Positions 2,677 to 32,000 of a DNA stretch of 32,000 nucleotides are shown here, in pieces. The position numbers were made by a program, and so were the translations under genes. Each line of letters starts with the position of its first letter. The stretch's first letter is position 1. Origin of the DNA: a bacterium (GTDB taxonomy: Bacteria; UBP7; UBA6624); the NCBI GenBank assembly GCA_002716355.1, contig PBAU01000002.1, positions 30,001 through 62,000 on the forward strand, read 5' to 3'. The notes beneath the pieces are model-generated. The model made no database searches and had not been told where the DNA came from. It saw nothing but the letters and a program-made list of their open reading frames with translations.

Positions 2677-2687
2677 TTAATATTGCT

Positions 2688-2770
2688 GCCGGTGTGGCGG
2701 AATGGTAGACGCGACGGACTTAAAATCCGTTGTCCGCAAGGACGTGGGGGTTCGAGTCCCTTCGCCGGCA
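2688..2770 (+). tRNA. tRNA-Leu (anticodon UAA), class II with a long variable arm, no encoded CCA
   Basis: Hand-folded cloverleaf. Acceptor GCCGGTG/CGCCGGC (one G-U pair) with discriminator A. D stem GCG/CGC with loop GAATGGTAGA. Anticodon stem ACGGA/TCCGT with loop CTTAAAA. Variable arm TGTCCGCAAGGACGT (stem GTCC/GGAC). T arm GGGGG-TTCGAGT-CCCTT. Total 83 nt. Confidence 0.9.
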
Positions 2771-2781
2771 TGCTTAATATT

Positions 2782-3255
2782 ATGGATGTTTTAATTGGGC
2801 AAAAACTTGCAAAACTAAGGCAACAAAAGGGTCTTACCCTAAATGATGTTGCCAAAGAGGTGGGGATATCTGCTGTATACATCTCTCTATTGGAAAGAGG
2901 GTTAAGAAAAAACCCAAGCAAAGAAGTCTTGAAAAGATTGGTTAGCCTTTATGGTGTCTCTGAAACAAGCTTGCTTAAGCCAGGATCCTCGTCGCCACCT
3001 GTTGAGGATGATTCTGGTGGTGTTGATTACACACAAACTCAAGTAACACCTGGAGCTATACCGAAAAATCCTCAGGGTATTCCTGTATCTGTTCGTCGTT
3101 TTTTAGAGAGTGAAGATGCTGATTTCCTAAGGCCAAGTGCCGGTGAAATACGAATCCTCGTTGCATGGGCGAGAAAAAACCACCATGCATCCCCTGAAGA
3201 AGTTATGTTTTATCTTATTGAGAAAGTGAGGCCATCACTACCAAAACAATTTTGA
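2782..3255 (+). CDS. XRE-family helix-turn-helix transcriptional regulator with an uncharacterised C-terminal domain
   Basis: N-terminal HTH_3 pattern: IGQKLAKLRQQKGLTLNDVAKEVGISAVYISLLERGLRKNPSKEVLKRLVSLYGV. The track ORF (2563..3255) runs through the tRNA, so I trimmed it to the ATG at 2782. An alternative ATG at 2770 shares its A with the last tRNA base. I do not recognise the C-terminal ~90 aa. Confidence 0.7.
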   Translation: MDVLIGQKLAKLRQQKGLTLNDVAKEVGISAVYISLLERGLRKNPSKEVLKRLVSLYGVSETSLLKPGSSSPPVEDDSGGVDYTQTQVTPGAIPKNPQGIPVSVRRFLESEDADFLRPSAGEIRILVAWARKNHHASPEEVMFYLIEKVRPSLPKQF

Positions 3256-7375: not shown

Positions 7376-7401
7376 TATTTTTATTGTACCGGTTTTTAAA
7401 T

Positions 7402-8679
7402 TTATTTTTTTATTTGTTCTAAGAGATCATGCTCCATTTGCTGTAGAGTGGATTTTTTTTCCGCCTCCATTGTTACCTCTATACGAGAATGTTCTTCTGT
7501 GTTTGCCCAAAACCAAGATCCATTTTCATAGTCTGTCCTGATCCCCTGAAGGTCTCTGACACTCACAAGAGGTGAACCTGCAAGGTTCATAACTGGTTCT
7601 TCTCGAAAAAAATTTTTCAATCTAACATGTTCTGATTTTTCCAACTGCAAGATCAAAGTTCTCTTGATGCCCTTTCCGTACTTGTCAGAAATTGAAATTC
7701 TTGTTTTTGAGAGAGGTTCTGATGTTTTTTGGAGATGATTCATTAGTGAAATTATGCAATAAAGTGCGTCTGGTACCGTATTATGCAAAAACGGTATAGT
7801 TATGTTTCCTCTCTTTACAGCCATCAAGCCATTTGTTTTTTTAAGAGCATTGTGCAAGTCCTTCTCACGAGTGGTTGTGAATACAATTTTTTGATTTAAC
7901 TCTTTGGCGATCTTCTGAAAAATATTGCTTGTGTTAACAGCGCAAACGATTGCACCATTTCTTTTTTCAAGCTCTGCTTTGTATAAGAAGGCTTGTATCC
8001 ATTCGCCAGGCCACACAAAACCTTTATCGTCTATGATGAAAAATCTTTCGCCACTGTCATCCAAGACAAAACCCAAATCACAATTTTCACCTACAACATG
8101 CCTTGCAACATCATCAACCCTGTGCTTGTATGGTTTGTTTTTATCAACTTGCAATGTAAAAACCGTGTGTGTATCAAATATTTTTTTAGCTATTTTTTCC
8201 ACAACCGGATTGGAGGTTTGAATTGTTATCTTTTTGGGCTTTTGTCGTTTTCGGATTGAAAGCAGTTCGTTTAGCTGTGTTGTTGGAATATTTTTTATTT
8301 TTACTTTTTTTTCATTGTCAAAACCATTTAACCCAACCTCGGGATGTGGGTTACCTTTTTCATCAAAAACCTTAAAACCCATCATTGCTTGCGGTGAAGA
8401 TCCTGCAGTAATGATTATCGAGCAAAAATCATTTTTAACAGCCTCCCTTACAGCAAATGGTGTTAATGTTTCTTGTTTGGTTTCACAAACATTTAAACCC
8501 CAAGAATTCAACTCACCCAGGATTGCTTCTTTTACCCGTTTCCCCATAAACCTTGCCCCGTCCTCTGCAAGCAAATATTTCCTACTAGGATCAAGTGTTA
8601 TTCGTAACTGTTTTAAAATTTTATTTAAGGTTAGGTCTCTACCCCATTTTCCATAAAAATAATTATCTTTAATTTTCAT
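7402..8679 (-). CDS. phosphohexomutase (PGM/PMM) superfamily homolog with degenerate catalytic motifs
   Basis: Four-domain PGM/PMM-like layout. TASHNP is replaced by TAGSSPQ. DGDGDR is replaced by DDSGER (in GFVLDDSGERFFIIDDKG). The RPSGTEP phosphate loop is replaced by ANTEEHS (in WFWANTEEHSRIEVTMEA). Confidence 0.55.
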   Translation of the reverse strand: MKIKDNYFYGKWGRDLTLNKILKQLRITLDPSRKYLLAEDGARFMGKRVKEAILGELNSWGLNVCETKQETLTPFAVREAVKNDFCSIIITAGSSPQAMMGFKVFDEKGNPHPEVGLNGFDNEKKVKIKNIPTTQLNELLSIRKRQKPKKITIQTSNPVVEKIAKKIFDTHTVFTLQVDKNKPYKHRVDDVARHVVGENCDLGFVLDDSGERFFIIDDKGFVWPGEWIQAFLYKAELEKRNGAIVCAVNTSNIFQKIAKELNQKIVFTTTREKDLHNALKKTNGLMAVKRGNITIPFLHNTVPDALYCIISLMNHLQKTSEPLSKTRISISDKYGKGIKRTLILQLEKSEHVRLKNFFREEPVMNLAGSPLVSVRDLQGIRTDYENGSWFWANTEEHSRIEVTMEAEKKSTLQQMEHDLLEQIKK

Positions 8680-8682
8680 TTC

Positions 8683-8973
8683 TTACTGCAGTGTAATTTT
8701 ATTTATTTTTATCTTTTGATTTGAAAGTTTTTCGATTATCGATTTTTTATTTTTGTTAAGTGTTTTTTTAATAATTGGGTGACTTTTTTTAACACTAACA
8801 AACAACTCTTGGTTTTTAAGGTTTTTTACCTCTGATTTTTTATAGGTTGGTTCTATTTTTTTTTTCCACACACCCCTAACCAACAAGAGTTCATTTAAGC
8901 CTGGACTGATCTTATTGATTATTTTTTGAATTTCTTTTTTGGGTTTTATACTTTGTTTAAAAATATTTTTCAC
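8683..8973 (-). CDS. DUF721/DciA-like small basic protein
   Basis: 96 aa and Lys-rich. The pattern LLLVRGVWKKKIEPTYKKSEVKNLKNQELFVSVKKS..IKKTL......IIEKL...IKINKI matches the DUF721 layout (W..ivg....s....l..g.L.V.v.s). It sits in the classic position after dnaN, and its start overlaps the dnaN stop by 4 nt. Confidence 0.5.
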   Translation of the reverse strand: MKNIFKQSIKPKKEIQKIINKISPGLNELLLVRGVWKKKIEPTYKKSEVKNLKNQELFVSVKKSHPIIKKTLNKNKKSIIEKLSNQKIKINKITLQ

Positions 8974-10100
8974 CCTTCTATTTTAGGGTGCTTCAAAGTC
9001 ATTAAAAAATATTTGTAACTGCTATCCTCGGGGTCTGAAAAAAGACAAGAAGAATGCGGATCTTCAAAACTGAAATTCACCTTATCGCTTTTTACAATTT
9101 TCAAAAAATCCAACATGAAGGAACTGTTCAAACAAACCAAAAAATCACCATCTTCAAAATCTTCTGCTGACAAAGTTTCCTCACCTTGGCCCCTTGCTGT
9201 ATCATCTGTTGTTATGAGTATCTCTCCTTTATCAATCTTGATCAACGATGCATTATTGAGTTCCTGGTACTTACCAAACTGCTGCAACCTTTCAAGAGCT
9301 TTTGTAAATTCTTTTTTATTTAAAGTAACCTTTTTAGTATGTTTCCTTTCTAGTATTTTTTCATAGTCTGGGTATGTTGGCGTCAATATTGTCGCAAAAA
9401 ATTTCACACCCTCATGAACAAACATGACATGATCACCTCTAACCTTTCCTTCCAAGATTCCAGTCCTTCCTGACAAGCCTTTCAATATACTTTTCAATGA
9501 ATTTGTATCAACTTGAATCTTTCTTTCAATGCCACTGTGATCATCGATGCTTACTATAGCCATACGAAAACCATCAGTGTTCACAATTCTTAAAGAACTA
9601 CCTCTAAAATCCAATAAAGTACCGCCAGAATACCCTTGGGAAGAGCCACCTCTAGCAACAATTAAAACCTTTTCAAGAAGTGCTACAAGGTCTTCTGTTT
9701 TGATCTCAAAAACTTCATCAGAACCTTTATCGTTAAAGGGAAAGCTGGTATGAGTTTGTGGAACTATAGATTTAAGGGTGTACCTGGAGCCTGAATTCTT
9801 TAAATGCAGAGCTCCGTCTTGATCGATATCCATTAGAACATCTCCCTCCATTCTTCTGAAAAGCTCCCTCATTTCTGCAATAGGGTAAAAGGTGTTTTCG
9901 GTTTCTTCTGATATGTTTTTATCCCTGATGGTTAGTGAACAGCCAGATACATTATTAAATGTTTCCAGGATCAAGCTTTTAGATTCATATCTTAGTCCTA
10001 CATGGGATATCCCCCTTAACCCCAACAAAGCATCTCCTGCACATGCAGAAACCGTTGTCAGGCTGTCATGCAACAATGTAGAGGATATTTTTATAGCCAT
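8970..10100 (-). CDS. dnaN: DNA polymerase III beta sliding clamp
   Basis: 376 aa, immediately downstream of dnaA. Three-domain length, with the conserved PTYPDYEKIL-type motif (fPdY..vi) at the start of domain III. Otherwise divergent. Confidence 0.85.
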   Translation of the reverse strand: MAIKISSTLLHDSLTTVSACAGDALLGLRGISHVGLRYESKSLILETFNNVSGCSLTIRDKNISEETENTFYPIAEMRELFRRMEGDVLMDIDQDGALHLKNSGSRYTLKSIVPQTHTSFPFNDKGSDEVFEIKTEDLVALLEKVLIVARGGSSQGYSGGTLLDFRGSSLRIVNTDGFRMAIVSIDDHSGIERKIQVDTNSLKSILKGLSGRTGILEGKVRGDHVMFVHEGVKFFATILTPTYPDYEKILERKHTKKVTLNKKEFTKALERLQQFGKYQELNNASLIKIDKGEILITTDDTARGQGEETLSAEDFEDGDFLVCLNSSFMLDFLKIVKSDKVNFSFEDPHSSCLFSDPEDSSYKYFLMTLKHPKIEG

Positions 10101-10185
10101 AAAAGTTATTTTAAAGAATAAATAGGATATTTGTTATTTGATTAATTAAATTAATTTTTATAAAAAACTACTTCTACTACTATTG
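10101..10185. other. AT-rich dnaA-dnaN spacer with a trinucleotide (DnaA-trio-like) array; candidate oriC unwinding module
   Basis: The 85-bp spacer is very AT-rich. 10168-10182 reads CTA CTT CTA CTA CTA, which on the complementary strand is 3'-GAT GAA GAT GAT GAT-5'. It directly follows the run attaattaaattaatttttataaaaaa. I found no consensus DnaA box (TTATCCACA). Confidence 0.3.
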
Positions 10186-11496
10186 TTAAAAAAGAGTTAA
10201 ATTACCATTATTTTCAGGGTTAACATCTTGGTTAGAAAAATCTAAAGATATACCATGATTAATAGCAATTGATTTAACCTGACTTTTGAAAAAAGAATCT
10301 TTTTTAAGCTTTTCTTTACCCTTTTTTAACGAATATGTTATTGCAGATTTTTTAACATTTAAAACACGTGATGATGAGGCCTTGCAACCATTCGGACGAT
10401 TGCACAAAAGAACAGAAGCAGCCTGTCTAGCTAAAACAACCTCCCTGGATCTTGATCCAGAAAGTAGTGATGATTTTGAAACATTAAAAACATTGCAAAT
10501 TTCGTCTAATAGCGATGAACCAGGTAACGATGTGTCTGTAGACAATGCAAACGAAACAGAGTAGTCTTCAGGGTTTCCAATTGATTTTGACCAAAGAAAC
10601 CTGGTTGCAATCCCTTTTAGAGCCCTAACGTCAGCAGGTAGTTTTTGAAACAGGTTTGTAGGTATGGTGTCTGAATTTTTTTCTTTGATTATTTTTGAAA
10701 GCAATATTTCACGTTCTTTTTCTAAAGGCGGTGACATTTTTATTACCAGGCCAGCAGTCAGCCTGCTTATTAATCTTGGACTGAATTCACGAATTGTTCT
10801 TGGGTGTCTATCGGCAACTATAACAATAGGCCGTGATCTTGTTAAAAAGGAATCGAAAACATTAAAAAACTCTTGAAGTGTTCTTTTTCTCCCAATGAAC
10901 TTTTGTATATCGTCAACAAGCAAAGATGATTGGGAAAAAAAGTAAGATTTAAAACTGTTTAGATCTTTTTTTTCAACTGAATCAACCAACTTTTGTGTGA
11001 ACTCGTCAGACGTGAAAACCCTATCGTCAAGGTTTTTTGCTGCGATATTTAGAAGATGGGTTTTTCCAATACCGGGAGGTCCGTATAAAAATATTGGAAA
11101 CAATTGATTTTCTAACTTGTTTGTTGTTGTCGAAGCGATTGCCCTAAATGCATTTTCAACCCCTCTGTAAGGGTGAAAATCGTTAAAAATCTCTTTTTTC
11201 GCACGAGGTTTTTTTTTGGTAATGATAGGAACATTTTTTGGTATTTTCTTTGAAGAGATCGATTCGATTAATTTGAAATCTTTGTAATTCAAATTGATAA
11301 TAATTTTCTTCAACAGGCCGAAGTTTTTTTCTGCAACTTTAAAATTGTATCTACCTGAAGCAGCAAGAATAACAGTGTTTTCCTGAAAGGTGATTTTTGA
11401 AGTTCTCAAAAGCGATGTTAACAAAAAGAAATTGGGTTCTAGCTTGATTTTTTGGATTATTTTTTCTTTTAGTTTTTTGCTTTTTGAAATTTCCAT
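10186..11496 (-). CDS. dnaA: chromosomal replication initiator protein DnaA
   Basis: AAA+ core: Walker A LYGPPGIGKTHLL, Walker B LLVDDIQKF, and SRLTAGLVIKMSPPLEKEREILL (sensor/box VII region). C-terminal DNA-binding domain pattern REVVLARQAASVLL. dnaA-dnaN synteny. Confidence 0.9.
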   Translation of the reverse strand: MEISKSKKLKEKIIQKIKLEPNFFLLTSLLRTSKITFQENTVILAASGRYNFKVAEKNFGLLKKIIINLNYKDFKLIESISSKKIPKNVPIITKKKPRAKKEIFNDFHPYRGVENAFRAIASTTTNKLENQLFPIFLYGPPGIGKTHLLNIAAKNLDDRVFTSDEFTQKLVDSVEKKDLNSFKSYFFSQSSLLVDDIQKFIGRKRTLQEFFNVFDSFLTRSRPIVIVADRHPRTIREFSPRLISRLTAGLVIKMSPPLEKEREILLSKIIKEKNSDTIPTNLFQKLPADVRALKGIATRFLWSKSIGNPEDYSVSFALSTDTSLPGSSLLDEICNVFNVSKSSLLSGSRSREVVLARQAASVLLCNRPNGCKASSSRVLNVKKSAITYSLKKGKEKLKKDSFFKSQVKSIAINHGISLDFSNQDVNPENNGNLTLF

Positions 11497-11613
11497 GAAG
11501 AGTGATTTTAAACATCAAAAAAATAATATATTTTTTTTAAAAAAGGTAACAAAAGAAAACCTAACCAACGTTATTCAACGATAAAAAAAAGATTTATCGT
11601 TTATTATTTTTTC
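11497..11613. other. divergent intergenic region at the gene-orientation switch (dnaA leftward, hbd rightward); candidate oriC/promoter region with a 9-bp inverted repeat
   Basis: AT-rich with A/T homopolymer runs. Inverted repeat AACGATAAA (11577-11585) / TTTATCGTT (11593-11601) with a 7-nt spacer. The only DnaA-box-like sequence is imperfect: TTATTCAAC at 11571-11579, 2 mismatches to TTATNCACA. Confidence 0.3.
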
Positions 11614-21013: not shown

Positions 21014-23335
21014 ATGGCACGAATAGGTGTTTTTCTTAGCAAAGAGGGAAAAGGTTTAGATCCGCTTAACCTACAAACCATTGCTGACAGATTGGTTGAG
21101 GAAGTGCAGGAGATAAACCATGTTTTTATACATGAAGACCTCAACACAGTTCAAGGTTTGGAAGCAATATCACAAGAGATCAAAAATCAAGATATTGGCT
21201 ATGTTGTTATCGGTTGTGGCTCTATTGATCAAAGGGAAGAGAATATCAGAAAAACATTGAATACAGCTGGCATTAACGAATACCTTTTGGAGGTTGTTAA
21301 TCTTAAAGAAATGGTAGCTAACGTGCATTCAGAAGAGCCCGAGAAAGCCAATGAAAAAGCTTTTCAGCTATTGAAAACAGCAGTTATCAAGGTTGAGCAA
21401 AGTAAACCTTTAGAAAAAACACCAATGAGGGTGGAACAACAAGTTTTAGTTGTTGGCGGCGGTGTTGCAGGCATGACTGCTTCTTTGAGAATTGCAGATG
21501 CTGGCTACAGTGTTGTTTTAGTTGAAAAGTCACCTGCATTAGGTGGAAAAGTTGCCTCTCTCAAAAATCTTTGGCCAAAACTCGAAGAGGCAGATGACTT
21601 AATGAGGAATCTTTCAATCAGTTGTCATCAACATGAAAATATAGTTATTTATGATTATTCAGAAGTTAAATCTATAGACGGAGTTCGTGGGGATTTTGAT
21701 GTTGAAATAGTCAGAAAACCAAGATTTGTTCAAAGTCAAAAAATTGTAAATTTTGAAAAAATTACAGAATCATTAAAAACGGATTTTCCAAATAAGCACA
21801 CCGGAGGCAGGACGGTGAACAAGGTTCTTTATCAACCATACGCAGGCTGTGTCCCACCATTGTTTTTGATAGACCCAGAAAATATAAATCATCCAGATGT
21901 CAAAAAGTTAATCACACTTGTTCCTGATGGAACTGTGAATCAGAACGAAAAGGAAAAAATCGTTCATGAAAAAGCAGGTGCTGTGATTATGGCTTTTGGA
22001 GCTGGGATGATGGATTGTTCTGGCTTAACAAATTTAACTGCTGCAAATAGTGAAAATGTACACAGTGCTAGTGATTTTGAATTTTTGAATTTCAAAAAAG
22101 ACGAAGAAATGTCGTTGTTATGGGTTGCAGATGCAGGAAGCAATGATCCCAAGAACGGTGTTGCTTACGCTTCCGAAGTGCCTTTGATGACCTGTGTCAA
22201 ACAGGCTATTTTTGCTAAAAAAATGTCTAATGGAAAAATTCACACAACAGTTGTTTACTCAGATAGGAGATCCAGAACAAAAGGATATGAAGAATTTATC
22301 AAAACCGCTGAGGAAAAATACCAGGTACAGATGGTTAGAGGCGCTGTTTCAAATGTAACTTCAAAGTCAAACGGGTTGTCTGTCAGCTTGCACGATTTAA
22401 TACAGGGCAAAGAGCAAAAGGTATCAGTTGACAAGGTTGTTTTGGCACAAGAGGTTGTTGCACACGATGATTCACAACATCTAGCAAGTATTGTTGATAT
22501 AGGTCGTGACGAAACAGGCTTTCTTGCTGAAACCCATCCTTCTCTGGAGCCATGTTCAACCAGTAATTCTGGAGTTTTTGTTTGTGGAGACTGTGCGTCT
22601 CCCGGTGATATCAGAGCTGCTGTTTTGACAGCTGAATCAGCAGTTGCTAAAGCTATGGCCGTTTTGGCCCAAAAAACAAGTGAGCCCTACAGGTTAAAAC
22701 AAAAAGATGAGCAACTTGCACGATTTGATGCTCCAGCAAAAGAGGTTTCTCCTGAGAGCTTTCAAACAAATGATGAAGGTGGCATGAATTACACAAGATT
22801 AAATAATGTTTTTGGTAAAACTGAAAGCGGTGTGTCCATACCAGCCTCACCAACCAGAAACATTGAACTTGCTGGTTGGGAGCTTTCTAAGTCAATTGCA
22901 GAAATTGAAAATATTTGGACAGATGCAAAAAATGACAACTGGGAACCAAGAATAACAGGATTTGCATCACAGTATGGTGGTTATCCACTTTTGGAAACAC
23001 TTGGAAGAGAGGAGGTTTCTTATTCATCTTGTTTTAGATTTCTGAGAGTGCGCTCAACAGCACATCTGGATCCACTCCTTGTCCTCAAAAGCTTCTTTAA
23101 TGGTGCAGATGGTGTGTTTATTATTGGTGGACCTTTAGGCAAAGGCAAGTTTCACAACGACAACTACCTTGCAAAAAGAAGATTTAAAGCATTAGAAGGG
23201 GTGCTTGATGCTGGTGGGATTGAGCCAGATAGAGTCAAGATTTTATTTGTAGATTCTCACCAAATTGATGAAGTTGCTGATCAGTTGCAAAAATTCCATA
23301 ATGCTGTCTCTAGCTTAGGCCCTTTAGGTATTTGA
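21014..23335 (+). CDS. HdrA-like FAD flavoprotein fused to a C-terminal MvhD/FlpD-like domain; canonical Fe-S cysteine ligands absent
   Basis: GGAGG lies ~7 nt upstream of the ATG. The bacterial HdrA N-domain pattern is recognisable but Cys-poor: IGVFLSKEGKG replaces IGVFiCHCGxNI, and EVVNLKEMVANVH replaces NIRExCSWVH. The FAD dinucleotide motif VLVVGGGVAGMTASLRIADAGYSVVLVEKSPALGGK and the C-terminal GVFVCGDCASPGDIRAAV are kept. The C-terminal 130 aa align to MvhD (see findings). Confidence 0.75.
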   Translation: MARIGVFLSKEGKGLDPLNLQTIADRLVEEVQEINHVFIHEDLNTVQGLEAISQEIKNQDIGYVVIGCGSIDQREENIRKTLNTAGINEYLLEVVNLKEMVANVHSEEPEKANEKAFQLLKTAVIKVEQSKPLEKTPMRVEQQVLVVGGGVAGMTASLRIADAGYSVVLVEKSPALGGKVASLKNLWPKLEEADDLMRNLSISCHQHENIVIYDYSEVKSIDGVRGDFDVEIVRKPRFVQSQKIVNFEKITESLKTDFPNKHTGGRTVNKVLYQPYAGCVPPLFLIDPENINHPDVKKLITLVPDGTVNQNEKEKIVHEKAGAVIMAFGAGMMDCSGLTNLTAANSENVHSASDFEFLNFKKDEEMSLLWVADAGSNDPKNGVAYASEVPLMTCVKQAIFAKKMSNGKIHTTVVYSDRRSRTKGYEEFIKTAEEKYQVQMVRGAVSNVTSKSNGLSVSLHDLIQGKEQKVSVDKVVLAQEVVAHDDSQHLASIVDIGRDETGFLAETHPSLEPCSTSNSGVFVCGDCASPGDIRAAVLTAESAVAKAMAVLAQKTSEPYRLKQKDEQLARFDAPAKEVSPESFQTNDEGGMNYTRLNNVFGKTESGVSIPASPTRNIELAGWELSKSIAEIENIWTDAKNDNWEPRITGFASQYGGYPLLETLGREEVSYSSCFRFLRVRSTAHLDPLLVLKSFFNGADGVFIIGGPLGKGKFHNDNYLAKRRFKALEGVLDAGGIEPDRVKILFVDSHQIDEVADQLQKFHNAVSSLGPLGI

Positions 23336-23338
23336 AAC

Positions 23339-24232
23339 ATGAATGAAATGAGAATAACAATCCAACGAGAAGCCAGAAGGCTTTTACAGCTGCAAAAAGT
23401 CAGCGTTGTTATAGGTTATGAGGTTGGTCCATACCCTGGCACGACCGCTCCCTGTTTCGCTTTCACCCCAGATGACGCTCAAAGAATTGTTTTCAATAGC
23501 TTTTCGTCTATCAATTTAGCCGTTTATCTTCCAGGCATTACTGGAAATGTTGGCATAGTGGCCACACCTGCAACTGTAAGATCCATCAAAGAGCTCGAAA
23601 AAGACGGCTTGGTGAATCGTAAAAATCTGCATATTATTGGTGTGAAATTTCCAGGAATATTAGATCCTCGACATTTAAATGTTGACAGAGAGAACGAAAA
23701 TACGTTATCAGTCAATGAGCATCCAGAAGCTTTATGGGAGTGGGCACTTCATGATCTTTACGAGGAGCCAGAAGATTATGACATACTTGTTGAGCCCAGG
23801 TGGATGAATGACCTCAGTAAAGCCGGCAAACTAAAAAAACCCACCCCAAACCGTACCAGCGTTGAAAGGTTAGAGCAGATGACTCATCACGAAAGAAGGC
23901 TATACTGGATGAGTTATTTTGAAAAACATAGGCATTCAGACCATAATAAAAATTTATTTCCTTCCACTTATGCGGGAGGAGACCATTTAGAAAAGTTTAA
24001 ATATATCAAATCTGCATATAGCTCGAACGAGCTTTTTTACGAACATCTTTCATGGGTTTACCAATCGATGGGTCGAGCTTCTGGCTTCGATCTCTCAGAC
24101 CTTACAGAGGACATGAATCAAATACCCCTTTCAACAATTCGAGCTTGGGCTGCTAGAGAGTTTAGAAAAAATTTTAATTACAGGCCAGGTGGGGAAGAGC
24201 CAAATCCATTACTGAAAAAGGAAAACATATAA
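23339..24232 (+). CDS. FrhB/FdhB-like protein, cysteine-depleted (one Cys in 297 aa); function unknown
   Basis: N-terminal half: ARRLLQLQKVSVVIGYEV........NVGIVATPATVRSIKELEKDGLVNRKNLHIIGVKFPG. This resembles the F420-hydrogenase-beta-like pattern (..vd.vig ... vavvGtPCqi.al..l......l.iGl.C.G) with both Cys substituted. It starts 3 nt after the HdrA-like stop. I do not recognise the C-terminal half. Confidence 0.55.
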   Translation: MNEMRITIQREARRLLQLQKVSVVIGYEVGPYPGTTAPCFAFTPDDAQRIVFNSFSSINLAVYLPGITGNVGIVATPATVRSIKELEKDGLVNRKNLHIIGVKFPGILDPRHLNVDRENENTLSVNEHPEALWEWALHDLYEEPEDYDILVEPRWMNDLSKAGKLKKPTPNRTSVERLEQMTHHERRLYWMSYFEKHRHSDHNKNLFPSTYAGGDHLEKFKYIKSAYSSNELFYEHLSWVYQSMGRASGFDLSDLTEDMNQIPLSTIRAWAAREFRKNFNYRPGGEEPNPLLKKENI

Positions 24233-24233
24233 C

Positions 24234-25256
24234 ATGAGCGACTATATTTTGTCAAAAGCTAAATTGAAATATTGGTTAGAGGATGTCAGAAAACGAAATG
24301 AACTATGGGCACCCGTTGGATCCAAAGGCGCTGTAAGTTATTTGAAAAATCCAAAAGGTGAAAATGTTGCAACAGATTTTACAAATAGTTTGGATTGTCC
24401 AAAGTATATATTTTGCCCACAGCAAGATGCCATATGCAACTATGAGATACAAGGAAGAGGCAAGGTTGCTATTGAGGAAGTTGAGCTCGATGTGACTCCT
24501 AGAGTTGTATTTGGCTTACGGCCACCAGACATTAGAGGCATCGAAATTCTCGATGCTTACCTGTTGAAAGATCAAATTGATCGGAGATACGAGGCAAGGC
24601 GAAAAAATACAATAAATATTTGTCTTGGTTACCATAACCCACCTCCTTGCTGTTTCGCAGAGTCTGTAGGTGTCGATCTTTTTCCCAAGAGTGGCTCTGA
24701 CATTTTGTTAACTGATATTGGTAGGAGTTATTATGTTGAAACACTTTCTGAAAAAGGAGATAGCCTGATCTCGGAACATTTCAATGAAGCTGATGATATT
24801 GTTCGAAATGAAGCCTGGGATATACAGAAGGGAAGTGAAGGAAAAACAAATTTTGATTTAAATTTGAATCGTTGGCAGGATTTCACTGATACTGAAATTT
24901 ACACTTTGCCGTATTGGGATGAAATTTATTTGGGCATTATTGCTGATTCTGTCGCAACCAGGTATTTTTACTCAGGAACTTATTTTAAGATTGTTGATGT
25001 TAACAGTGGAAACAAGGGCACAAGGTATAAAACCTGGACAACAATGTATTCTCCAGGCTTTTCAACATTGGCAAATGGTTATGACTACAAGCCAAGCCTC
25101 AAGGAAAAATTTAAAGATTGGATATTAGAAATGTTTCATTTTTTTCCAAAAAGACATGGTTTTATTGGCTGTTCAGGTGCGCACAGGTGCATTGCAGGCA
25201 TGACCACCAAGCATGACCTGAGAAAAATTATTTCTAATGTGGACTTTGGAATATGA
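24234..25256 (+). CDS. sulfhydrogenase beta-subunit (HydB) / AsrA-like protein with degenerate Fe-S motifs
   Basis: The N-terminal two thirds match the HydB/AsrA pattern: ELWAPV, CPKYIFCPQQD (PPKkfffP), RVVFGLRPPDIRGIEILD (iiFGvr.CDi.gl.iLD), YEARRKNT, CLGYHNPPPCCFAESVG (C....CFC.s.G) and DILLTDIGRSYYVETLSEKG. The two C-terminal CxxCxxCxxxCP ferredoxin motifs are absent. Confidence 0.7.
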   Translation: MSDYILSKAKLKYWLEDVRKRNELWAPVGSKGAVSYLKNPKGENVATDFTNSLDCPKYIFCPQQDAICNYEIQGRGKVAIEEVELDVTPRVVFGLRPPDIRGIEILDAYLLKDQIDRRYEARRKNTINICLGYHNPPPCCFAESVGVDLFPKSGSDILLTDIGRSYYVETLSEKGDSLISEHFNEADDIVRNEAWDIQKGSEGKTNFDLNLNRWQDFTDTEIYTLPYWDEIYLGIIADSVATRYFYSGTYFKIVDVNSGNKGTRYKTWTTMYSPGFSTLANGYDYKPSLKEKFKDWILEMFHFFPKRHGFIGCSGAHRCIAGMTTKHDLRKIISNVDFGI

Positions 25257-26029
25257 ATTTAGTACCAAAGATAGCAAATATAAAAAATACAGAACGGGAT
25301 GGTCGTTTAGGGTCAATATCATTTGATTTTGATGGGGACCTGAAGGCCGGACAGGTTTTCAAGATAGGGACCTTTGGAAAAGGAGAAACAACTGCTTGGG
25401 TCATAGATGCGGAAGATAAAACCGTAACCGTTTCGTTTCTGGATAACAACCCTGTCACACATAAAATCATGCTCCTTCCCACAGATGAATGCATTACTGT
25501 AAGAGGGCCATTTGGCAATGGTTTTTCACTTTTAGATGAAAGAAATATTTTATTAATTAGTCAAGATGATGGAATATTAAGCCAAAAGAAACTTATTAAT
25601 GATTTGCTCCAAAATGGTAATCAGGTCAGCTTGCTCCACTTCACCTCTTTTCCAAAAGATATATTTATGAGCTCTTCACTTAAAAAAGCTGTATCAGATG
25701 ACTCTCCTATCAATGGTGAAATTATCGATATGACAAAAAAAGGACCACAGGATTTAGATACGTTTATCAAATCTTGCATCAAGGCAAGTTACACCTCCGG
25801 AATAAACGCAGTGGCTCTATCAGGCAATGAGAATTTTCAGCAGTCTGTGTCGAGGGTTCTGGAGAAAACAATGATTAAAGATAAAAGCATACAAATTTTA
25901 TTTAATCGTAATTTTGTTTCAGGAATGGGTTGGTCTAACAAGGATCTTTACGGTACCACAAACATATGGAAAGAAGGGCCAGTATTTACATTAGATCAGG
26001 TTCGAAGATTCCCAGGTGTATTCATTTAA
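25253..26029 (+). CDS. sulfhydrogenase gamma (HydG) / AsrB / PyrK-like FNR-fold protein lacking nucleotide-binding and 2Fe-2S motifs
   Basis: LKAGQVFKIGTFGKGE (f.pGQf..l..pg.ge), ITVRGPFGNGFSL (l.vrGPyGnGF) and WKEGPVFTLDQV (C.dGPVF) place it in the family. LLISQDDGILSQ replaces llvaGGtGiaP, and NFVSGMGWSNKDLYG replaces M.CG.G.C..C. ATGA overlap with the upstream gene. Confidence 0.7.
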   Translation: MNLVPKIANIKNTERDGRLGSISFDFDGDLKAGQVFKIGTFGKGETTAWVIDAEDKTVTVSFLDNNPVTHKIMLLPTDECITVRGPFGNGFSLLDERNILLISQDDGILSQKKLINDLLQNGNQVSLLHFTSFPKDIFMSSSLKKAVSDDSPINGEIIDMTKKGPQDLDTFIKSCIKASYTSGINAVALSGNENFQQSVSRVLEKTMIKDKSIQILFNRNFVSGMGWSNKDLYGTTNIWKEGPVFTLDQVRRFPGVFI

Positions 26030-27130: not shown

Positions 27131-28054
27131 ATGAATCGTTTAAAAAGCATAAATCTACGTTTTTTGTTGATGCCCTTTGTTCTGGCTTTTATTTTTGCTT
27201 TTGAGGATATTGACACTAAAGAGAAGTCAAGCGAGGAGTTATGGGTTGTAAATTTTTTAGCTGAAGGAGTGGTTTTACCACCCGGTCAGATAGATTTGCC
27301 AAAAATAACTATCGATTACACAAAAACTGACCATGCCAAAATTGCTAAGAATCTTTTGGGTGCAGACATAGAGGCAGAAACCTCTGTCGGTTTAACCAGA
27401 GTTATCGATCAGGGTTTTCAAACATATGCAACCGAGGACGGCCGAGAATTATTGGTTTTTCCTCATGGTGGAATCACATTTAACCATCCTTTTGCCGGGG
27501 TGCATGAGTTGTTCCCATTAACCCGCACACAGGCAGAAAGTGTTCTGGATATTTTTAATAACAATTTTAATTATTTTCCAGAAGATGCCTCACTGGTCAA
27601 TACAGGAGAAATTAAACATCCAGAATATCAGTCTTTCAACAACAGTCAAGGATTACCGTTTGGTTACATTTATGAATATGGGCGTTATTTTAAAAATGTT
27701 CTCATTAAAAATGATGTAGTCAGGGCTTTAGTGGTTGGCGGAAGAGTTTGGGAATTTTCATTTTCCTGGGGCGATCAGCCTGTTGAGATTGAAGACACTG
27801 AGGCAACAATAATCCCAGCATGGTCTGCAGTTAAGGATGCCATCGAGTATGCGTATAGGAATTTTTACGCTGGAGAATATTACGCAGATGTATTTGTTAC
27901 CAAGGTTCAACTTGTTTATACTTTTGATGGCCTACAGGAGGCATGGAAAAAGGATGAACCAAAAAGATTAGTTCCGGCATGGGTGGTCCAGATAAATAAA
28001 TCGAATGAAATTATCTTAGAAGCTTTCACCGGTCAAGTTATTCCCATTTATTAA
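27131..28054 (+). CDS. hypothetical exported or membrane-anchored protein, possibly with a PepSY-like C-terminal domain
   Basis: N-terminal hydrophobic segment LRFLLMPFVLAFIFAF. The C-terminal segment IIPAWSAVKDAIEYAY....VTKVQLVY......LVPAWVVQINKSNEIILEAFTGQVI fits the PepSY-type pattern (..A...a....v..v.l......paW.v......v.vdA.tG.v). Confidence 0.5.
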   Translation: MNRLKSINLRFLLMPFVLAFIFAFEDIDTKEKSSEELWVVNFLAEGVVLPPGQIDLPKITIDYTKTDHAKIAKNLLGADIEAETSVGLTRVIDQGFQTYATEDGRELLVFPHGGITFNHPFAGVHELFPLTRTQAESVLDIFNNNFNYFPEDASLVNTGEIKHPEYQSFNNSQGLPFGYIYEYGRYFKNVLIKNDVVRALVVGGRVWEFSFSWGDQPVEIEDTEATIIPAWSAVKDAIEYAYRNFYAGEYYADVFVTKVQLVYTFDGLQEAWKKDEPKRLVPAWVVQINKSNEIILEAFTGQVIPIY

Positions 28055-28100: not shown

Positions 28101-29213
28101 ATGAGTTCCACCGAAGCAGGAGATGTTGTTGCCCAGGCTATACTTCAAAAATACCCTAAATCAAATGTATTTGTTAAGAATTTTGCAGATGGTGGTGAGG
28201 GAACGGCAGATGTCCTGTTGGATTATTTCGATCATGAAGCTCACAAGGTTAAAACCCAAGGTGCCAACGGGAAGGATATTGATGCTTATTGGTATTTTTT
28301 GAAAAAAGAAAAAGTAGCCCTGCTAGAAATGGCTTCAATTGTCGGGATTTCAATGATTCCCAAGTCCGAATTAGATCCAGAGGCTTTAAGCACTTGCGGT
28401 CTTGCTCCAGTTATTATTGACATTCTTGAAAAAGGTATTAGAAAAATCTGGTTTACTGTTGGCGGAACCTCAACGGTTGATGCTGGACTTGGCTTGCTGA
28501 AAGGGATGGGCGTTTCCACACGGGAAGGGACATTTCCTAATTCATTATTAGCAGTAAAGAAAGATATTTTTTTTGATTTTAAAAATTTAGATTCGATGAT
28601 TTCAGATCTTAAAATACACCCAGCAAAAGGCAGCTGTTTGTTTCCTGATGTTTTTTTTGATATAATAGCTGATGTTCGCGCTCCTCTTTTAGGTAAGCGA
28701 GGTGCTGTTTTGGCTTTTGGCAAGCAAAAGGGTGCTACCCCTAAAAATATTCCTATTTTGGAACAAGGGATGGCTGATTTTGCTTGTATGGTTGAAGCCA
28801 AAGTCGAGGACTCGACCTTTTTGCAAACAAAAGGTTTGGGTGCTGCTGGCGGCATCGCTCTTGGGCTGGCCTTGCTTTTTAACGTGAATATTAAAAATGG
28901 AGCTGATTTTGTTATTGACAAAATGGGGCTCAGGGACGAGATGAGTAATTTTGATTTTGTGATAACAGGAGAGGGACAGTTTAACTCTCAAACCAAACAA
29001 GGGAAAGGGCCATGGTCTATTGCATCACTAGCTGTAAGTAATAGCACCCCAGTTTTGATTATTAGTGGTTTGAAAATTAAAGAAAGAAACAAAACAAAAG
29101 ATTTTTCTTTCTTGGAGGTTTCTCAGACAGTCCCAAGAAACAAAAAAGAGGCACAATTAAATCTTTTCCAAGCTATGAGTGGATGGCTTGATGATAATGA
29201 GGTGAAAAAATGA
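28101..29213 (+). CDS. glxK: glycerate kinase (GlxK/GarK family); the true start is probably upstream of the first ATG
   Basis: FADGGEGTADVLL and GEGQFNSQTKQGKGP (GEG..D.Qt..GK.P), with the right overall length. The conserved N-terminal motif (IALDSFKGT) is encoded in frame immediately upstream at 28074-28100, with no ATG/GTG/TTG available (see finding). Confidence 0.85.
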   Translation: MSSTEAGDVVAQAILQKYPKSNVFVKNFADGGEGTADVLLDYFDHEAHKVKTQGANGKDIDAYWYFLKKEKVALLEMASIVGISMIPKSELDPEALSTCGLAPVIIDILEKGIRKIWFTVGGTSTVDAGLGLLKGMGVSTREGTFPNSLLAVKKDIFFDFKNLDSMISDLKIHPAKGSCLFPDVFFDIIADVRAPLLGKRGAVLAFGKQKGATPKNIPILEQGMADFACMVEAKVEDSTFLQTKGLGAAGGIALGLALLFNVNIKNGADFVIDKMGLRDEMSNFDFVITGEGQFNSQTKQGKGPWSIASLAVSNSTPVLIISGLKIKERNKTKDFSFLEVSQTVPRNKKEAQLNLFQAMSGWLDDNEVKK

Positions 29214-32000
29214 AACAAAACAAAGTAATTGATATGGGTTTGATTATTACTGAAACCTTTGCAGGTATTATGCAGAAAAATATTGCAAAAGCAGGAACTT
29301 TAAAAGATCTAGAAGCCAGTTTTTTAGAATATGAGGATGCTATTGGTTTAGATGCAAAAATATTTGTTAAAAGATATGCTATGAAGTTTTTATCAAATTG
29401 TGCTTTTATAAAAAAATGGGATGATGGTTGGGTTTTAGTTCCTCATAAGCTAAAAGCACACAAGCTAGCAAGAGAAATACTAGAAGAAAGCGGATCTTTT
29501 ATGTTGGAATCCAAAATAAGAAGCCAAGTTGCTAAGCGACTCGGACAGAAAGTTAGTGAGACAAAGTTATATCTAGATATAGATGATGATTTTTCATTGG
29601 CGGAAGGCTTAAGGCAGGAAGATCAAATAGGCAGAGGTGCCATTTGGGGTTTGTGTGAATGGGTTTTGATTAATAATTTAGCAAAAACCCTTATTGAATC
29701 CCGAGGTCCAATGAAAGAAAAAAGAATCATCAGCACATTGATCGAGAATGATTTAGTTACACAGGAAAAACAACCTGTTTTTTGCCCGCAGATAGACAAG
29801 AGATTTATAGCTGAATCAGGTAATTCATGGGATGTAGGAAAGGCAAAAAAGCAACCCCTTCAGACACCTAAAACCGGAGCTTTGGAGACCAAGATAAGAG
29901 AGGAGATAACAAGCAAGGTAGAAAGATTGCTGGAGAATCAGGCATCAGACAAGAGTTTTTCAAAACAGGAGATTACAACTGCCCTGATTGGTAGTGCAAA
30001 AAGTTCTAAAGGTTCTCATTACCAGGACATGCTGGACGAGATCCTTTCTGTTTTTGAGAAATCTAAAAAGATAACCAAGGTTCGATTCGAACTTAAAAAC
30101 CCATATTGGATTAAGTCTGAAAGCCTGCCAAAGATAGATGTAAAAAAATTAGATCTAATTTTTCCACTCCCATATTCCGAACATCAGCTTTTGGGAGACG
30201 ATATATTTAATGAAAATCTTTTTGCAAATCTCTCTGATCCAGCTTTGTATTGGTTGGACGGGGATTTTTCCGAACAGGGTTTTCCTGAGGTGGAGCCATT
30301 GTTTATTTTAACTTTCAATGACTTTGTAAATGACGAGTTAAACTACATATCACAACCATTGGTTAATGCTATTCAGGCTTCATTGCTTGCATCTAATGAG
30401 TGGGGTGAATTTGTTTTACAAACACCCGACAAGCAAGAGCTTTCTATTTTGATTAATTTTAAGCATCAAATAATTTCAGGTATGGCATCCTGGGTTAATG
30501 GCTATGCCCAACCTGGTGATGTTTACAATTTCGAATATCTCGGATCATCTACTTTCAGGCTTGTAAAAAATAAAGAGATTAAAAATCCATCACTAGATGA
30601 CGATGAACTAGAAAGATTACTCTCCTTACAGGCAGAGAGCAAACTAACACTCAAAAAACTTGTAATTGAAGTTTTAAAACATCACCCAGGTGGTTTAACC
30701 TTCAGCGGTATATTTAATCGCTTAATGTTTATAAGAAGAATTTCAAGAAGATCTTTAATGAGTGAGTTGACAAAATTCTTTTGTTTTGATTGTAAAGATG
30801 ATAAATGGAAATATTATGAAAAAAGATCTGACCTAGGAGAAAAGTTTTCTGCTAGCTCTTTTCCAATTGCTGGTTTAAATACCAATTGTTGGATATTGCG
30901 TGAGGAAATGCAGCCCGAAGTTGGGGATTCATTGAATATGGTTTATGGGAAAGCAGCACATAATGATTTGTTTTGCATTGTTAATCCAAAAAATCAACTT
31001 ACCAGTGTGTTTCGATTAGCCGTTAAAGGTAAAAAATGCACAATTCAAGATATTACAAGCTGTGAGCCAATGCCTTTAGATAATTTTGATATCCCAAAAG
31101 CAGGTCTGAATCAGATTGAGAATTCAGTTTTTTGTGACATTAACGAAGAGCTTGAAAGGGAGGTTTTGGATTCCGAAGTTTACGCAGGAATTAAGCAGGC
31201 CTTCACGACATTTGAACCTAATCCAAGTGTAAACCAGGAGGTTACAAGAAGCTTAGAGGAGCTAGAGAGTCTTTTGGAGGATTCTGGTTCCGTTAGTCCA
31301 TTCGGTGGCTTGGCATGGCAACTTCAGCAAAAATTTACCTGGCAGGAATTTCAAAAAGTTTTAGACTCAAAGATTTATTCTCAAGAGCATGAGGACCGTT
31401 TGGATGCAGGCAAGTTTGCAAGCTGGATGGCGAAAAGACCAATAGCATGGGACTCCGAATCGATTGTTTATCCAGCTGGACATGGGGAATTGTCAATCTG
31501 CATTCTGGAAGCATTGATTTCCATAATGCAAAATGCTGATTACACCATAGAGGAAGATTCACTTAACATTAGAACAGCCCTTAATAGCGATTTTGTTTTT
31601 AACTGGAGCAAACTGTTGTCAGACCAAAGAAGAATCAAGAAGATTGTTGACATGGAAGATAGTTTTGAATTAGTTGAATTTTTATCTGGCTGGTTTAGAC
31701 GAGTAGCCAAGATTATTGAACCTAGAAAATTAGAAAGTGTAATTAACAGGTTAAGTTTTCACCTGAAAGGTATCGGATCTGTCGATATTAGCGATAAGGA
31801 TTTGCCAGAATATTTAAAATCAGAAAAATCTTCCCTGACAGGTCTAAGTCTTTCTGGAGACAAGCAAGAAAAATCTGCAACTTTGTTTGCAGATTTTAGA
31901 GGATTTTCAAAAGCCAAGATTAAGAAAACATTAAGCCTAGCACCTTCAGTTCTTGTTGATGGGGGACTGCTTGTTTTTGTTTCATTTGAAAATCAAAAAG
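29210..32000 (+). CDS. large uncharacterised protein, at least 930 aa, 3'-truncated by the window edge; multiple HARE-HTH-like winged-helix repeats (absent from the ORF track)
   Basis: I translated it codon by codon from the ATG at 29210 (ATGA overlap with the glxK stop) to 32000 and found no stop codon. The peptide is compositionally normal, starting MKQNKVIDMGLIITETFAGIMQKN. Repeated modules look like LAREILEESGSFMLESKIRSQVAKRLG...AIWGLCEWV, LAKTLIESRGPMKEKRIISTLI...DKRFIAESGNSWDV and LVIEVLKHHPGGLTFSGIFNRLMFIRR...DDKWKYYE. Confidence 0.8.
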   Translation, partial: MKQNKVIDMGLIITETFAGIMQKNIAKAGTLKDLEASFLEYEDAIGLDAKIFVKRYAMKFLSNCAFIKKWDDGWVLVPHKLKAHKLAREILEESGSFMLESKIRSQVAKRLGQKVSETKLYLDIDDDFSLAEGLRQEDQIGRGAIWGLCEWVLINNLAKTLIESRGPMKEKRIISTLIENDLVTQEKQPVFCPQIDKRFIAESGNSWDVGKAKKQPLQTPKTGALETKIREEITSKVERLLENQASDKSFSKQEITTALIGSAKSSKGSHYQDMLDEILSVFEKSKKITKVRFELKNPYWIKSESLPKIDVKKLDLIFPLPYSEHQLLGDDIFNENLFANLSDPALYWLDGDFSEQGFPEVEPLFILTFNDFVNDELNYISQPLVNAIQASLLASNEWGEFVLQTPDKQELSILINFKHQIISGMASWVNGYAQPGDVYNFEYLGSSTFRLVKNKEIKNPSLDDDELERLLSLQAESKLTLKKLVIEVLKHHPGGLTFSGIFNRLMFIRRISRRSLMSELTKFFCFDCKDDKWKYYEKRSDLGEKFSASSFPIAGLNTNCWILREEMQPEVGDSLNMVYGKAAHNDLFCIVNPKNQLTSVFRLAVKGKKCTIQDITSCEPMPLDNFDIPKAGLNQIENSVFCDINEELEREVLDSEVYAGIKQAFTTFEPNPSVNQEVTRSLEELESLLEDSGSVSPFGGLAWQLQQKFTWQEFQKVLDSKIYSQEHEDRLDAGKFASWMAKRPIAWDSESIVYPAGHGELSICILEALISIMQNADYTIEEDSLNIRTALNSDFVFNWSKLLSDQRRIKKIVDMEDSFELVEFLSGWFRRVAKIIEPRKLESVINRLSFHLKGIGSVDISDKDLPEYLKSEKSSLTGLSLSGDKQEKSATLFADFRGFSKAKIKKTLSLAPSVLVDGGLLVFVSFENQK

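Follow-up and report, generated by a model that had tools for sequence, protein, structure and literature searches.

HARE-HTH winged-helix domains have been described in fusion with N6-adenine methyltransferase or restriction endonuclease domains (Aravind and Iyer 2012, in the summary given by PMC4738411). According to the summaries in PMC4738411 and PMC10853773, the HARE-HTH domain of the RNA polymerase (RNAP) delta subunit binds polymerase, and the HARE-HTH fusions of prokaryotes are taken to be readers of DNA or modified DNA. Here, we analysed a gene at the end of a 32,000-nucleotide stretch of bacterial DNA (contig PBAU01000002.1, positions 30,001 to 62,000, lineage UBP7; UBA6624), hereafter called the window. 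The gene begins at position 29210, overlaps the stop codon of a glycerate kinase gene (glxK), and encodes a 954-amino-acid protein. This protein is predicted to combine five winged-helix units (wH0 to wH4) and two beta-domains with a C-terminal class I methyltransferase fold in which the catalytic motif IV is degenerate.

The described fusions resemble the window protein in joining HARE-HTH-type winged helices and an N6-adenine-methyltransferase-type Rossmann domain in one polypeptide. However, they carry one winged helix, whereas the window protein is predicted to have five, together with two beta-domains and an acidic segment. It also lacks motif IV, a restriction partner and any direct Pfam match, and lies in a syntenic, origin-proximal housekeeping context.

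The RNAP delta subunit (RpoE of Firmicutes and Mollicutes; TIGR04567; 2krc, 6zfb, 7f75) was the only solved structure matched by the profile of the wH4 module, and this match was weak. Like delta, the window protein pairs winged helices with an acidic segment, and its relatives match delta models at wH1 and wH4. Delta, however, is a protein of ~170-200 amino acids with one HARE-HTH domain and a disordered polyanionic tail, whereas the acidic segment of the 954-amino-acid window protein is predicted to be ordered.

Gamma-class N6-adenine DNA methyltransferases (HsdM of type I systems, M.TaqI and CamA; PF02384) have the same fold as that predicted for the C-terminal domain. The order of landmarks also agrees: a pre-motif-I helix, the motif I loop, an acid after beta2, beta4 with motif IV, and a beta5 with G-G or G-R. 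The helical spacer preceding the Rossmann domain resembles the N-terminal helical domain of HsdM. In contrast to these enzymes, the window protein has D-F-R-G-F in place of N-P-P-(Y/F), lacks a target recognition domain (TRD) or HsdS partner, and has no direct match to a sequence model. The best Foldseek matches were RNA methyltransferases of the RsmD/YhhF, Trm11, RlmKL and RlmI types, with target-normalised TM-scores (template modelling scores) of up to 0.65. Several of them combine a PUA or THUMP domain with a methyltransferase and aligned over 440-500 columns, which resembles the layout of beta-domain, spacer and methyltransferase fold in the window protein, although the aligned residue ranges were not reported. 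Identity to these enzymes is 8-15%, and neither their (D/N)PP(F/Y) motif nor their catalytic Cys is present in the window protein.

The features that are new with respect to the known fusions are the predicted five-fold winged-helix array, the extra beta-domains, an invariant acidic DGDF segment, the degenerate methyltransferase, the housekeeping position and the coupling to glxK. The combination of HARE-HTH and N6-adenine methyltransferase domains, known mainly from restriction-modification, would thereby occur also as a conserved housekeeping protein with a degenerate active site. The family is represented in no library (Pfam, NCBIfam, PADLOC, PHROGs or PDB), and all database copies are unnamed or labelled "hypothetical". 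The family, from unplaced bacteria, is clearly bounded and uncharacterised; it has one conserved linkage that is curious, and nothing in it overturns expectations yet.

A constrained 954-codon gene runs off the window

The plus-strand frame opened by the ATG at 29210 contained 930 sense codons and no stop up to the window edge at 32000. Stop codons are expected at a frequency of 0.068 per codon at the base composition of the window (~1 per 15 codons), at which the probability of 930 stop-free codons is ~10^-28.5. The features of this region are as follows.

29199-29204 (+): Shine-Dalgarno sequence GAGGTG, with a 5-nucleotide spacer to the start codon (read from the sequence)
29210-32000 (+): coding sequence, codons 1-930 of a 954-codon gene, the final 24 codons lying beyond the window (open frame, ortholog lengths, dN/dS)
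31335-31562 (-): 75-amino-acid antisense open reading frame (ORF), not a gene, as it lies wholly inside a sense frame under purifying selection

The GAGGTG motif was also found upstream of the orthologs at loci L001, L003, L005 and L006 (family members and their loci carry our P and L numbers). The start codon shares the tetranucleotide ATGA with the TGA stop of the upstream ORF, as an earlier reading made from the sequence only (the sequence-only reading) had stated.

Close orthologs formed five clusters from marine metagenomes and metagenome-assembled genomes, with 63-97% identity and lengths of 954-961 amino acids; the protein as seen in the window is therefore short of only 24 C-terminal codons. 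The ratio of nonsynonymous to synonymous substitution rates (dN/dS; Nei-Gojobori method, against four orthologous loci) was 0.04-0.09 overall and below 0.2 in each domain. The frame at 29210-32000 is a real, constrained gene under strong purifying selection, which bears out the proposal of an unlisted ORF of at least 930 codons. As had also been noticed, the ORF list (at least 60 amino acids) gave only the antisense ORF in the final 2.8 kb. The long frame was missing because the lister passes over any ORF left open at the end of the source; its absence is a listing convention and no biological concealment.

Predicted domain architecture

AlphaFold modelling with six close orthologs gave a mean predicted local distance difference test score (pLDDT) of 40. 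A composite alignment that included trimmed distant fragments (33 rows) raised this value to 84, a practical lesson for families of this kind. The final composite alignment was built without the methyltransferase-like fragments. In the resulting model (mf3092d201a06; predicted TM-score 0.55), 850 of 954 residues had a pLDDT of at least 70. The predicted segments are listed below.

29234-29437 (+): winged helix wH0, residues 9-76 (AlphaFold helices 9-23, 31-45 and 49-63, strands 67-70 and 73-76; pLDDT 84-91)
29453-29668 (+): winged helix wH1, residues 82-153, HARE-HTH-like, with an 'IWGLCEW' wing at its end (AlphaFold and homolog matches)
29672-29836 (+): winged helix wH2, residues 155-209, HARE-HTH-like, with invariant D196-x-R198-F ... 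W207 (AlphaFold and a match of P0010)
29840-29875 (+): Lys-rich, probably disordered linker, residues 211-222, net charge +5 (pLDDT <50, charge count)
29879-30115 (+): winged helix wH3, residues 224-302 (AlphaFold helices 224-243, 252-260 and 269-284, strands 288-292 and 299-302)
30140-30385 (+): conserved acidic segment, residues 311-392, within a stretch of net charge -12 (pLDDT 82-92)
30248-30286 (+): motif Y347-W-L-D350-G-D352-F-x-E355-x-x-F-P359 in the acidic segment, invariant in 12 sequences down to 20% identity
30401-30577 (+): small predicted beta-barrel, residues 398-456, in the order b1-b2-b3-helix-b4-b5 (AlphaFold, pLDDT ~90)
30599-30814 (+): winged helix wH4, residues 464-535, HARE-HTH-like, with conserved 'RR-x-x-RR ... 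S-x-L ... CF ... W' (AlphaFold and weak delta matches)
30887-31117 (+): second predicted beta-domain, residues 560-636 (AlphaFold strands 560-564, 587-591, 596-606, 609-622 and 633-636)
31121-31432 (+): helical spacer, residues 638-741, net charge -10, with a conserved 'FQK(V/I)L(D/E)xKxYS' helix (AlphaFold, conservation)
31460-32000 (+): predicted class I (Rossmann) methyltransferase-fold domain, residues 751-930 of 751-954 (AlphaFold, Foldseek, hhalign)

Strands beta6 and beta7 of the methyltransferase fold lie just past the window edge. The acidic segment had the lowest dN/dS of all domains (0.024 in the closest comparison), and it aligned with a 'DP-x-Y-ED-x-x-EE' segment of shorter multi-HARE-HTH proteins. 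The helical spacer aligned with the pre-motif-I region of the methyltransferase-like domain in the P0014 family described below.

In the model, all five winged-helix units had a helix-helix-helix-hairpin arrangement at high confidence, with tryptophans W146/W151, W207, W300 and W533 in the wings. The sequence-only reading had proposed at least four HARE-HTH-type modules in tandem. The modules themselves are recovered in the model, but the repeat is not seen in the sequence: self-BLAST found no internal repeat, and the best segment-against-segment hhalign probability was 6%. In the predicted model, the winged-helix units repeat in structure only.

Modular relatives in unplaced bacteria

An exhaustive profile search of 1.84 billion representative proteins at a threshold of E <= 1e-3 matched 29 representative clusters. 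Full-length distant relatives (P0007, P0008, P0010, P0011 and P0013) had 20-24% identity. A word-indexed homolog search with profiles found no further distant members, and scans of metagenome and genome contigs yielded 4-5 close loci each and no more. Among the matches found, the family is restricted to uncultured, taxonomically unplaced bacteria, including a lineage widespread in Tara Oceans data. Matches of the direct searches to COMPASS-Shg1 (E = 2), a nitrile hydratase accessory protein (E = 0.13) and influenza PB2 (E = 0.23) were dismissed as noise.

Other relatives matched in part only, at residues 50-220 or 325-550, so the protein is modular. The N-terminal module (residues 50-220) recurs in proteins of ~650 amino acids (P0014, P0015, P0018, P0027 and others), which have wH0-wH2 and a methyltransferase-like domain in common with the window protein. 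They have a Lys/Glu-rich linker, and they differ from the window protein in keeping N-x-x-F at motif IV (GN[FL][TA]F), in lacking the middle modules and in not lying beside glxK. The middle module (residues 325-550) recurs as the C-terminal module of proteins of ~600-660 amino acids (P0016, P0020, P0022 and P0024-P0031), which share the acidic segment, the barrel and wH4, the latter two kept as one module. These proteins have several HARE-HTH units and a basic 'KRKYI' tail; unlike the window protein, they lack a methyltransferase-like domain and are not beside glxK. One relative of the P0016 type is named "RNA polymerase delta subunit" in IMG.

Both shorter architectures also occur in housekeeping contexts. 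P0014-family genes (L019, L020) were located between pantothenate genes and those for FapA, TatD, DksA, LspA and RNase HII. The C-terminal module of the P0016 family has no Pfam model (loci L021 and L022), and one member adjoins gltX and relA.

Winged helices with transitive links to HARE-HTH and RNAP delta

The Pfam HARE-HTH model (PF05066; gathering score 25.9 bits) did not match the window protein or P0001 even at E <= 10; by the Pfam criterion, the window protein is not a HARE-HTH member. Among family members and fragments, however, 8 of 33 were matched at E <= 0.1 (best E = 7e-9), with scores above gathering only in the distant homologs P0017 (29.5 bits) and P0029 (34.6 bits). HARE-HTH was the most recurrent Pfam family among members, followed by the winged-helix families DUF4777 and WH_Rok. 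HARE-HTH matches fell at positions aligned with wH1 (P0007 residues 94-120, P0017 residues 70-96) and with wH2 (P0010 residues 151-181).

RNAP-delta models of NCBIfam (TIGR04567 and NF045964) gave a similar picture. They did not match the window protein, and relatives scored 14-32 bits, below the cut-off of 42. The positions matched were the equivalents of wH1 (P0007 residues 94-123, P0017 residues 69-102) and wH4 (P0031 residues 516-550, P0020 residues 299-325). Against the PDB, the profile of the barrel and wH4 had five matches, all RNAP delta subunits and all weak (E = 0.09-0.3). RNAP delta structures (2krc and others) also appeared, at E = 0.13-0.85, in the noise range of the N-terminal module profile, whose top PDB matches, HU and thymidine kinase, were short and spurious. 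No profile match was obtained for wH3 on its own.

Through these distant homologs, at least wH1, wH2 and wH4 appear HARE-HTH-like; for wH0 and wH3, the likeness to winged helices comes from the predicted structure only. Of the HARE-HTH assignment made from the sequence, what survives is a large multi-winged-helix protein with transitive links to PF05066 and delta; PF05066 does not match the protein itself.

Two predicted beta-domains

Two beta-rich segments picked out by the sequence-only reading, which likened them to B3/EcoRII-N or PUA-like barrels, correspond to the predicted beta-domains at residues 398-456 and 560-636. Neither had a Pfam match, and PDB profile searches gave no meaningful match of either to PUA-like (EVE/ASCH/PUA) or B3/EcoRII-N domains. 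In the first barrel, the elements (strands 398-404, 410-416 and 421-423, helix 426-432, strands 437-445 and 448-456) follow a strand-helix order typical of OB folds, a likeness read from the order of predicted secondary structure.

There is a hint that the second beta-domain may be PUA-like. A 'PGD[FY]L[FL]' pattern in the second beta-domain of distant relatives is reminiscent of PUA-like domains, and in Foldseek searches the PUA-methyltransferase proteins 3ldf, 1wxw, 2b78 and 3vse aligned over 470-500 columns, longer than the methyltransferase domain alone; as noted above, residue ranges were not given for these alignments. The sole PDB match of the profile of this domain, a coiled-coil SMC protein, was not meaningful.

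A predicted methyltransferase fold with a degenerate motif IV

The sequence-only reading, having seen no catalytic motif, placed any enzymatic domain past the downstream edge of the window. This did not hold: the protein ends 24 residues past the window, and the predicted methyltransferase fold begins inside it. In Foldseek searches of the PDB with the model, the best 50 of 60 matches (E <= 1e-3) were all S-adenosylmethionine (SAM)-dependent methyltransferases, with probabilities of 0.95-1.00. The matches listed included RsmD/YhhF (target-normalised TM-score 0.60-0.65), Trm11, RlmKL, HsdM StySJI, CamA and DOT1L. Adenine-specific DNA methyltransferases ranked at the top in a library of viral structures. 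The strand order of the model, b1-aA-b2 ... b4-aD-b5-b6-b7, was that expected of a class I Rossmann fold.

A two-step chain of homology points in the same direction. Residues 640-954 aligned by hhalign with the C-terminal domain of the P0014 family over 254 columns (probability 88.5%, E = 2.7e-6), and MAFFT aligned the two families with their landmarks in register. In the PDB, all matches of the P0014-family profile were in turn N6-adenine DNA methyltransferases, among them HsdM and M.TaqI (E = 0.003-0.1); in Pfam, the profile matched the N6_Mtase model (E = 6e-4). On the basis of predicted structure and this chain, residues 751-954 are assigned a class I methyltransferase fold. The P0014 family may be an intermediate between active N6-adenine methyltransferases and the degenerate domain.

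Within the domain, a motif-I-like loop, P755-A-G-H-G-E760, is encoded at nucleotides 31472-31489. It is one residue shorter than the canonical loop and lacks the leading acidic or amide residue. P-x-G-x-G-E is present in most members; in P0011 the loop is G-D-A-D and the second glycine is lost. The acidic E781-E782-D783 after beta2 is conserved. At the motif IV position, where (N/D)PP(Y/F) is expected, the window protein has F893-A-D-F-R-G-F899 (nucleotides 31886-31906). Variants of this motif across the family (ADFRGF, VDLRAL, GDLRGR, GDLRNL and ADGRGL) reduce to D-x-R without prolines, and the aromatic residue is not conserved (F, L, R, L and L, respectively). In canonical enzymes, (N/D)PP(Y/F/W) holds the amino group of the target in place and stacks against the flipped base. 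This motif was absent from all family members aligned, and the domain was therefore not filed as an N6-methyltransferase. The dN/dS of the domain was ~0.05.

Conserved coupling to glycerate kinase

The upstream partner of the 954-codon gene and the gene before it are as follows.

28101-29213 (+): glxK (glycerate kinase), translationally coupled upstream partner (Pfam, NCBIfam, conserved adjacency)
27131-28054 (+): gene for a 307-amino-acid protein of no Pfam or NCBIfam family, on the same strand and with a 46-nucleotide gap to glxK

The glxK product matched Pfam Gly_kinase (PF02595) at E = 2e-78 and NCBIfam TIGR00045 at 247 bits, above the curated cut-off of 168. By these profile matches, it is classed as a bona fide member of the glycerate kinase family. 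A Gly_kinase gene immediately preceded the family gene in every lineage with upstream DNA available, namely those of P0001, P0005, P0006, P0007, P0011 and P0013. The two genes overlap by 17 nucleotides in the P0007 lineage ("bacterium JZ-2024 1") and by 4 nucleotides in that of P0011; in that of P0013, glycerate kinase also precedes, on a frameshift-ridden contig. The coupling to glycerate kinase put forward by the sequence-only reading is thus real, and the adjacency is conserved in lineages down to 20-33% identity. The survival of a stop/start overlap through such divergence argues for selected co-expression with glxK, and the arrangement in every lineage examined argues for placing the 954-amino-acid protein on the same transcript as glycerate kinase. 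This conserved translational coupling offers a concrete, testable hypothesis.

Other neighbours differ from those of the window in lineages of the P0007 and P0011 type, where bactofilin and M23 peptidase genes lie upstream. Downstream in the P0007, P0011 and P0008 lineages, the ~950-amino-acid gene has a stop/start overlap with a GAF-protein gene, followed by plsY and gpsA. The GAF proteins have an N-terminal membrane anchor, and those of the P0007 and P0011 type are 770-870 amino acids long. The copies at L011 10943-13543, L014 4194-6500 and L024 2393-3403 share 23-27% mutual identity, and the window lineage has no such partner.

The 307-amino-acid gene is probably the first of a transcription unit with glxK and the 954-codon gene. 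A homolog lies upstream of glxK in "bacterium JZ-2024 1" (L012 4160-5068; 24% identity, E = 2e-18), and the gene may be part of the same conserved unit. As it is common to this distant lineage, the linkage may partly be inherited synteny within one deep clade.

An origin-proximal housekeeping context

The genes gyrB, dnaN and dnaA lie on the minus strand at 5.3-11.5 kb of the window, where the cumulative GC skew reaches its minimum (~10-11 kb). The window thus spans the replication origin region, and the locus, ~18 kb from dnaA-dnaN-gyrB, is origin-proximal chromosomal core. On the plus strand, the origin genes are followed by fatty-acid and 2-oxoacid dehydrogenase genes, tatC and a cluster of the HdrA-MvhD type, and then by ksgA (minus strand), the 307-amino-acid unknown, glxK and the 954-codon gene. 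Neighbours of the gene, including those beyond the window, comprise lipoamide dehydrogenase, TatA/C, the HdrA-MvhD cluster, KsgA, GlxK, an amidase, a permease-Usp gene and an extracytoplasmic function (ECF) sigma factor.

Contig L001 (97% identity) and the genome GCA_964343345.1 (63% identity) had the same gene order, and both continue downstream with a convergent Amidase_2 gene, followed by genes for an amino-acid permease/Usp protein and an ECF sigma factor. The 33%-identical ortholog P0006 occupies the same genomic position, so that synteny is kept between genomes whose orthologs are 33-97% identical. The G+C content of the gene, 0.35-0.38, does not set it apart from the remainder of the window. 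Within 10 kb, none of the four deeply divergent lineages inspected had a gene for restriction, a methylase, a helicase, a nuclease or a mobile element, and the window protein matched no PADLOC family (0) and no PHROGs family. Promoter and terminator scans gave nothing above shuffled expectation.

Possible functions

The reading we favour, although we would put it at no better than an even call, is that of a vertically inherited, cytoplasmic, nucleic-acid-associated housekeeping factor that combines a winged-helix array with a non-canonical or pseudo-methyltransferase module. The winged-helix array would anchor the protein on DNA, or on RNAP in the manner of delta's HARE-HTH domain. The methyltransferase-like domain would no longer carry out canonical base N-methylation, and its Rossmann fold would serve as a module that binds SAM or S-adenosylhomocysteine (SAH) or a nucleotide, or as a purely structural one. 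The protein would then act as a lineage-specific chromosome- or transcription-associated factor rather than as a restriction, modification or defence enzyme. The degenerate-site pattern recalls pseudoenzymes recruited as scaffolds or sensors.

Several observations weigh against this reading. Neither the window protein nor the close-ortholog profile had a sequence match in Pfam, NCBIfam, PADLOC, PHROGs or PDB, so both assignments, to HARE-HTH and to N6-methyltransferases, come through intermediates or from structure. When the C-terminal profiles of both families were combined, the search against the PDB returned no methyltransferase and the weak signal was lost. By charge count, most domains are neutral or net negative; as a basic charge is confined to the linker, wH3 and wH4, the electrostatics make no obvious case for DNA binding. 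That the protein binds DNA, RNA or RNAP is a prediction from domain likeness. Finally, the conserved glycine loop, the post-beta2 acid, D-x-R and the low dN/dS of the domain fit an active enzyme with an unusual site equally well.

Such an enzyme would be an orphan nucleic-acid methyltransferase with a non-canonical site, producing N6-methyladenine in DNA or N2-methylguanine in rRNA or tRNA like RsmD, Trm11 and RlmKL, with the winged-helix units and beta-domains recognising the target in place of a TRD or HsdS. We consider this possible, if rather unlikely. The class I fold, the DNA and RNA amino-methyltransferases as its closest structures, and a HARE-HTH fusion to N6-adenine methyltransferase already on record (in the summary of PMC4738411) are in its favour. 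In all lineages, moreover, the P-x-G-x-G-E loop, the post-beta2 acid and the Asp and Arg of motif IV are conserved, albeit with the loss of the second loop glycine in P0011; the domain is under strong purifying selection, and no separate TRD follows it, so the N-terminal domains could give specificity. These points are set against the absence of (N/D)PP(Y/F/W) with its conserved aromatic and the failure of Pfam and NCBIfam methyltransferase models to match the protein. A role in anti-phage defence or restriction-modification, as a modification sensor or a type IIG-like enzyme, is far less credible, and we regard it as very unlikely. It draws on the typical fusion of prokaryotic HARE-HTH domains to restriction endonucleases or N6-adenine methyltransferases and their proposed role as readers of modified DNA (as summarised in PMC4738411 and PMC10853773), and on weak matches (E = 1e-4 to 3e-3) between the methyltransferase-like domains of P0014 and P0018 and MADS2, a model for a defence methyltransferase. 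However, Pfam, AlphaFold and Foldseek gave no nuclease, helicase or ATPase domain in the protein, PADLOC and PHROGs gave no match, and no defence or mobile genes lay within 10 kb in any lineage inspected. Gene order is that of a conserved, vertically inherited housekeeping region, G+C content matches the window, and purifying selection is uniformly strong. The defence or DNA-modification role suggested by the sequence-only reading finds no footing here.

The linkage to glxK raises the alternative of a metabolic or transcriptional regulator, either a SAM- or nucleotide-sensing DNA-binding protein that controls the glxK operon or carbon flux, or a complex partner of GlxK. The adjacency, with overlapping or near-abutting codons, persists at 20-33% identity in six lineages while other neighbours change, and the upstream gene belongs to the glycerate kinase family proper. 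Yet a protein of 954 amino acids and eleven segments is far bigger than known operon regulators and has no known ligand-sensing domain, the shorter related architectures are not beside glxK, and the shared 307-amino-acid gene allows that the linkage is partly inherited; we find this alternative doubtful. Similarly doubtful is the most far-reaching reading, a new bacterial chromatin or transcription factor conserved in a deep unclassified clade. It would be a pseudo-methyltransferase "reader" scaffold (a HARE-HTH array plus a dead N6-adenine methyltransferase) seated on the chromosome or RNAP. By being obligatorily co-expressed with glycerate kinase, or by forming a complex with it, this scaffold would link gene expression to SAM status or central carbon metabolism.

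Further observations in the window

The origin genes (gyrB, a 425-amino-acid weakly GlmM-like ORF, dnaN and dnaA) lie together at 5327-11496 (-), with intergenic regions at 8680-8969 and 11497-11613. The window DnaA scored 173 bits, far below the NCBIfam cut-off of 344, and DnaA boxes of the E. coli type were not enriched (7 found, 10.4 expected). The low score and the lack of box enrichment suggest a divergent initiator and box.

The cluster at 21014-26029 (+) encodes an HdrA-like flavoprotein fused to MvhD/FlpD (773 amino acids), a 297-amino-acid unknown, a 340-amino-acid 4Fe-4S protein and a 258-amino-acid AsrB/PyrK-like FAD/NAD electron-transfer subunit. The cluster thus forms a heterodisulfide-reductase-like module, here in a marine bacterium, and is likewise conserved in the 33%-identity lineage (L008).

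A listed 230-amino-acid ORF at 2563-3255 (+), with HTH_3 at residues 82-135, overlaps tRNA-Leu(taa) at 2687-2771 (+). This ORF is therefore over-extended, and its true start lies downstream of the tRNA. SLH-domain proteins are encoded both in the window (384-1721, -) and beside a P0014-family gene (L019 13140-13968), and they may reflect an S-layer-bearing envelope type shared by these unplaced lineages.

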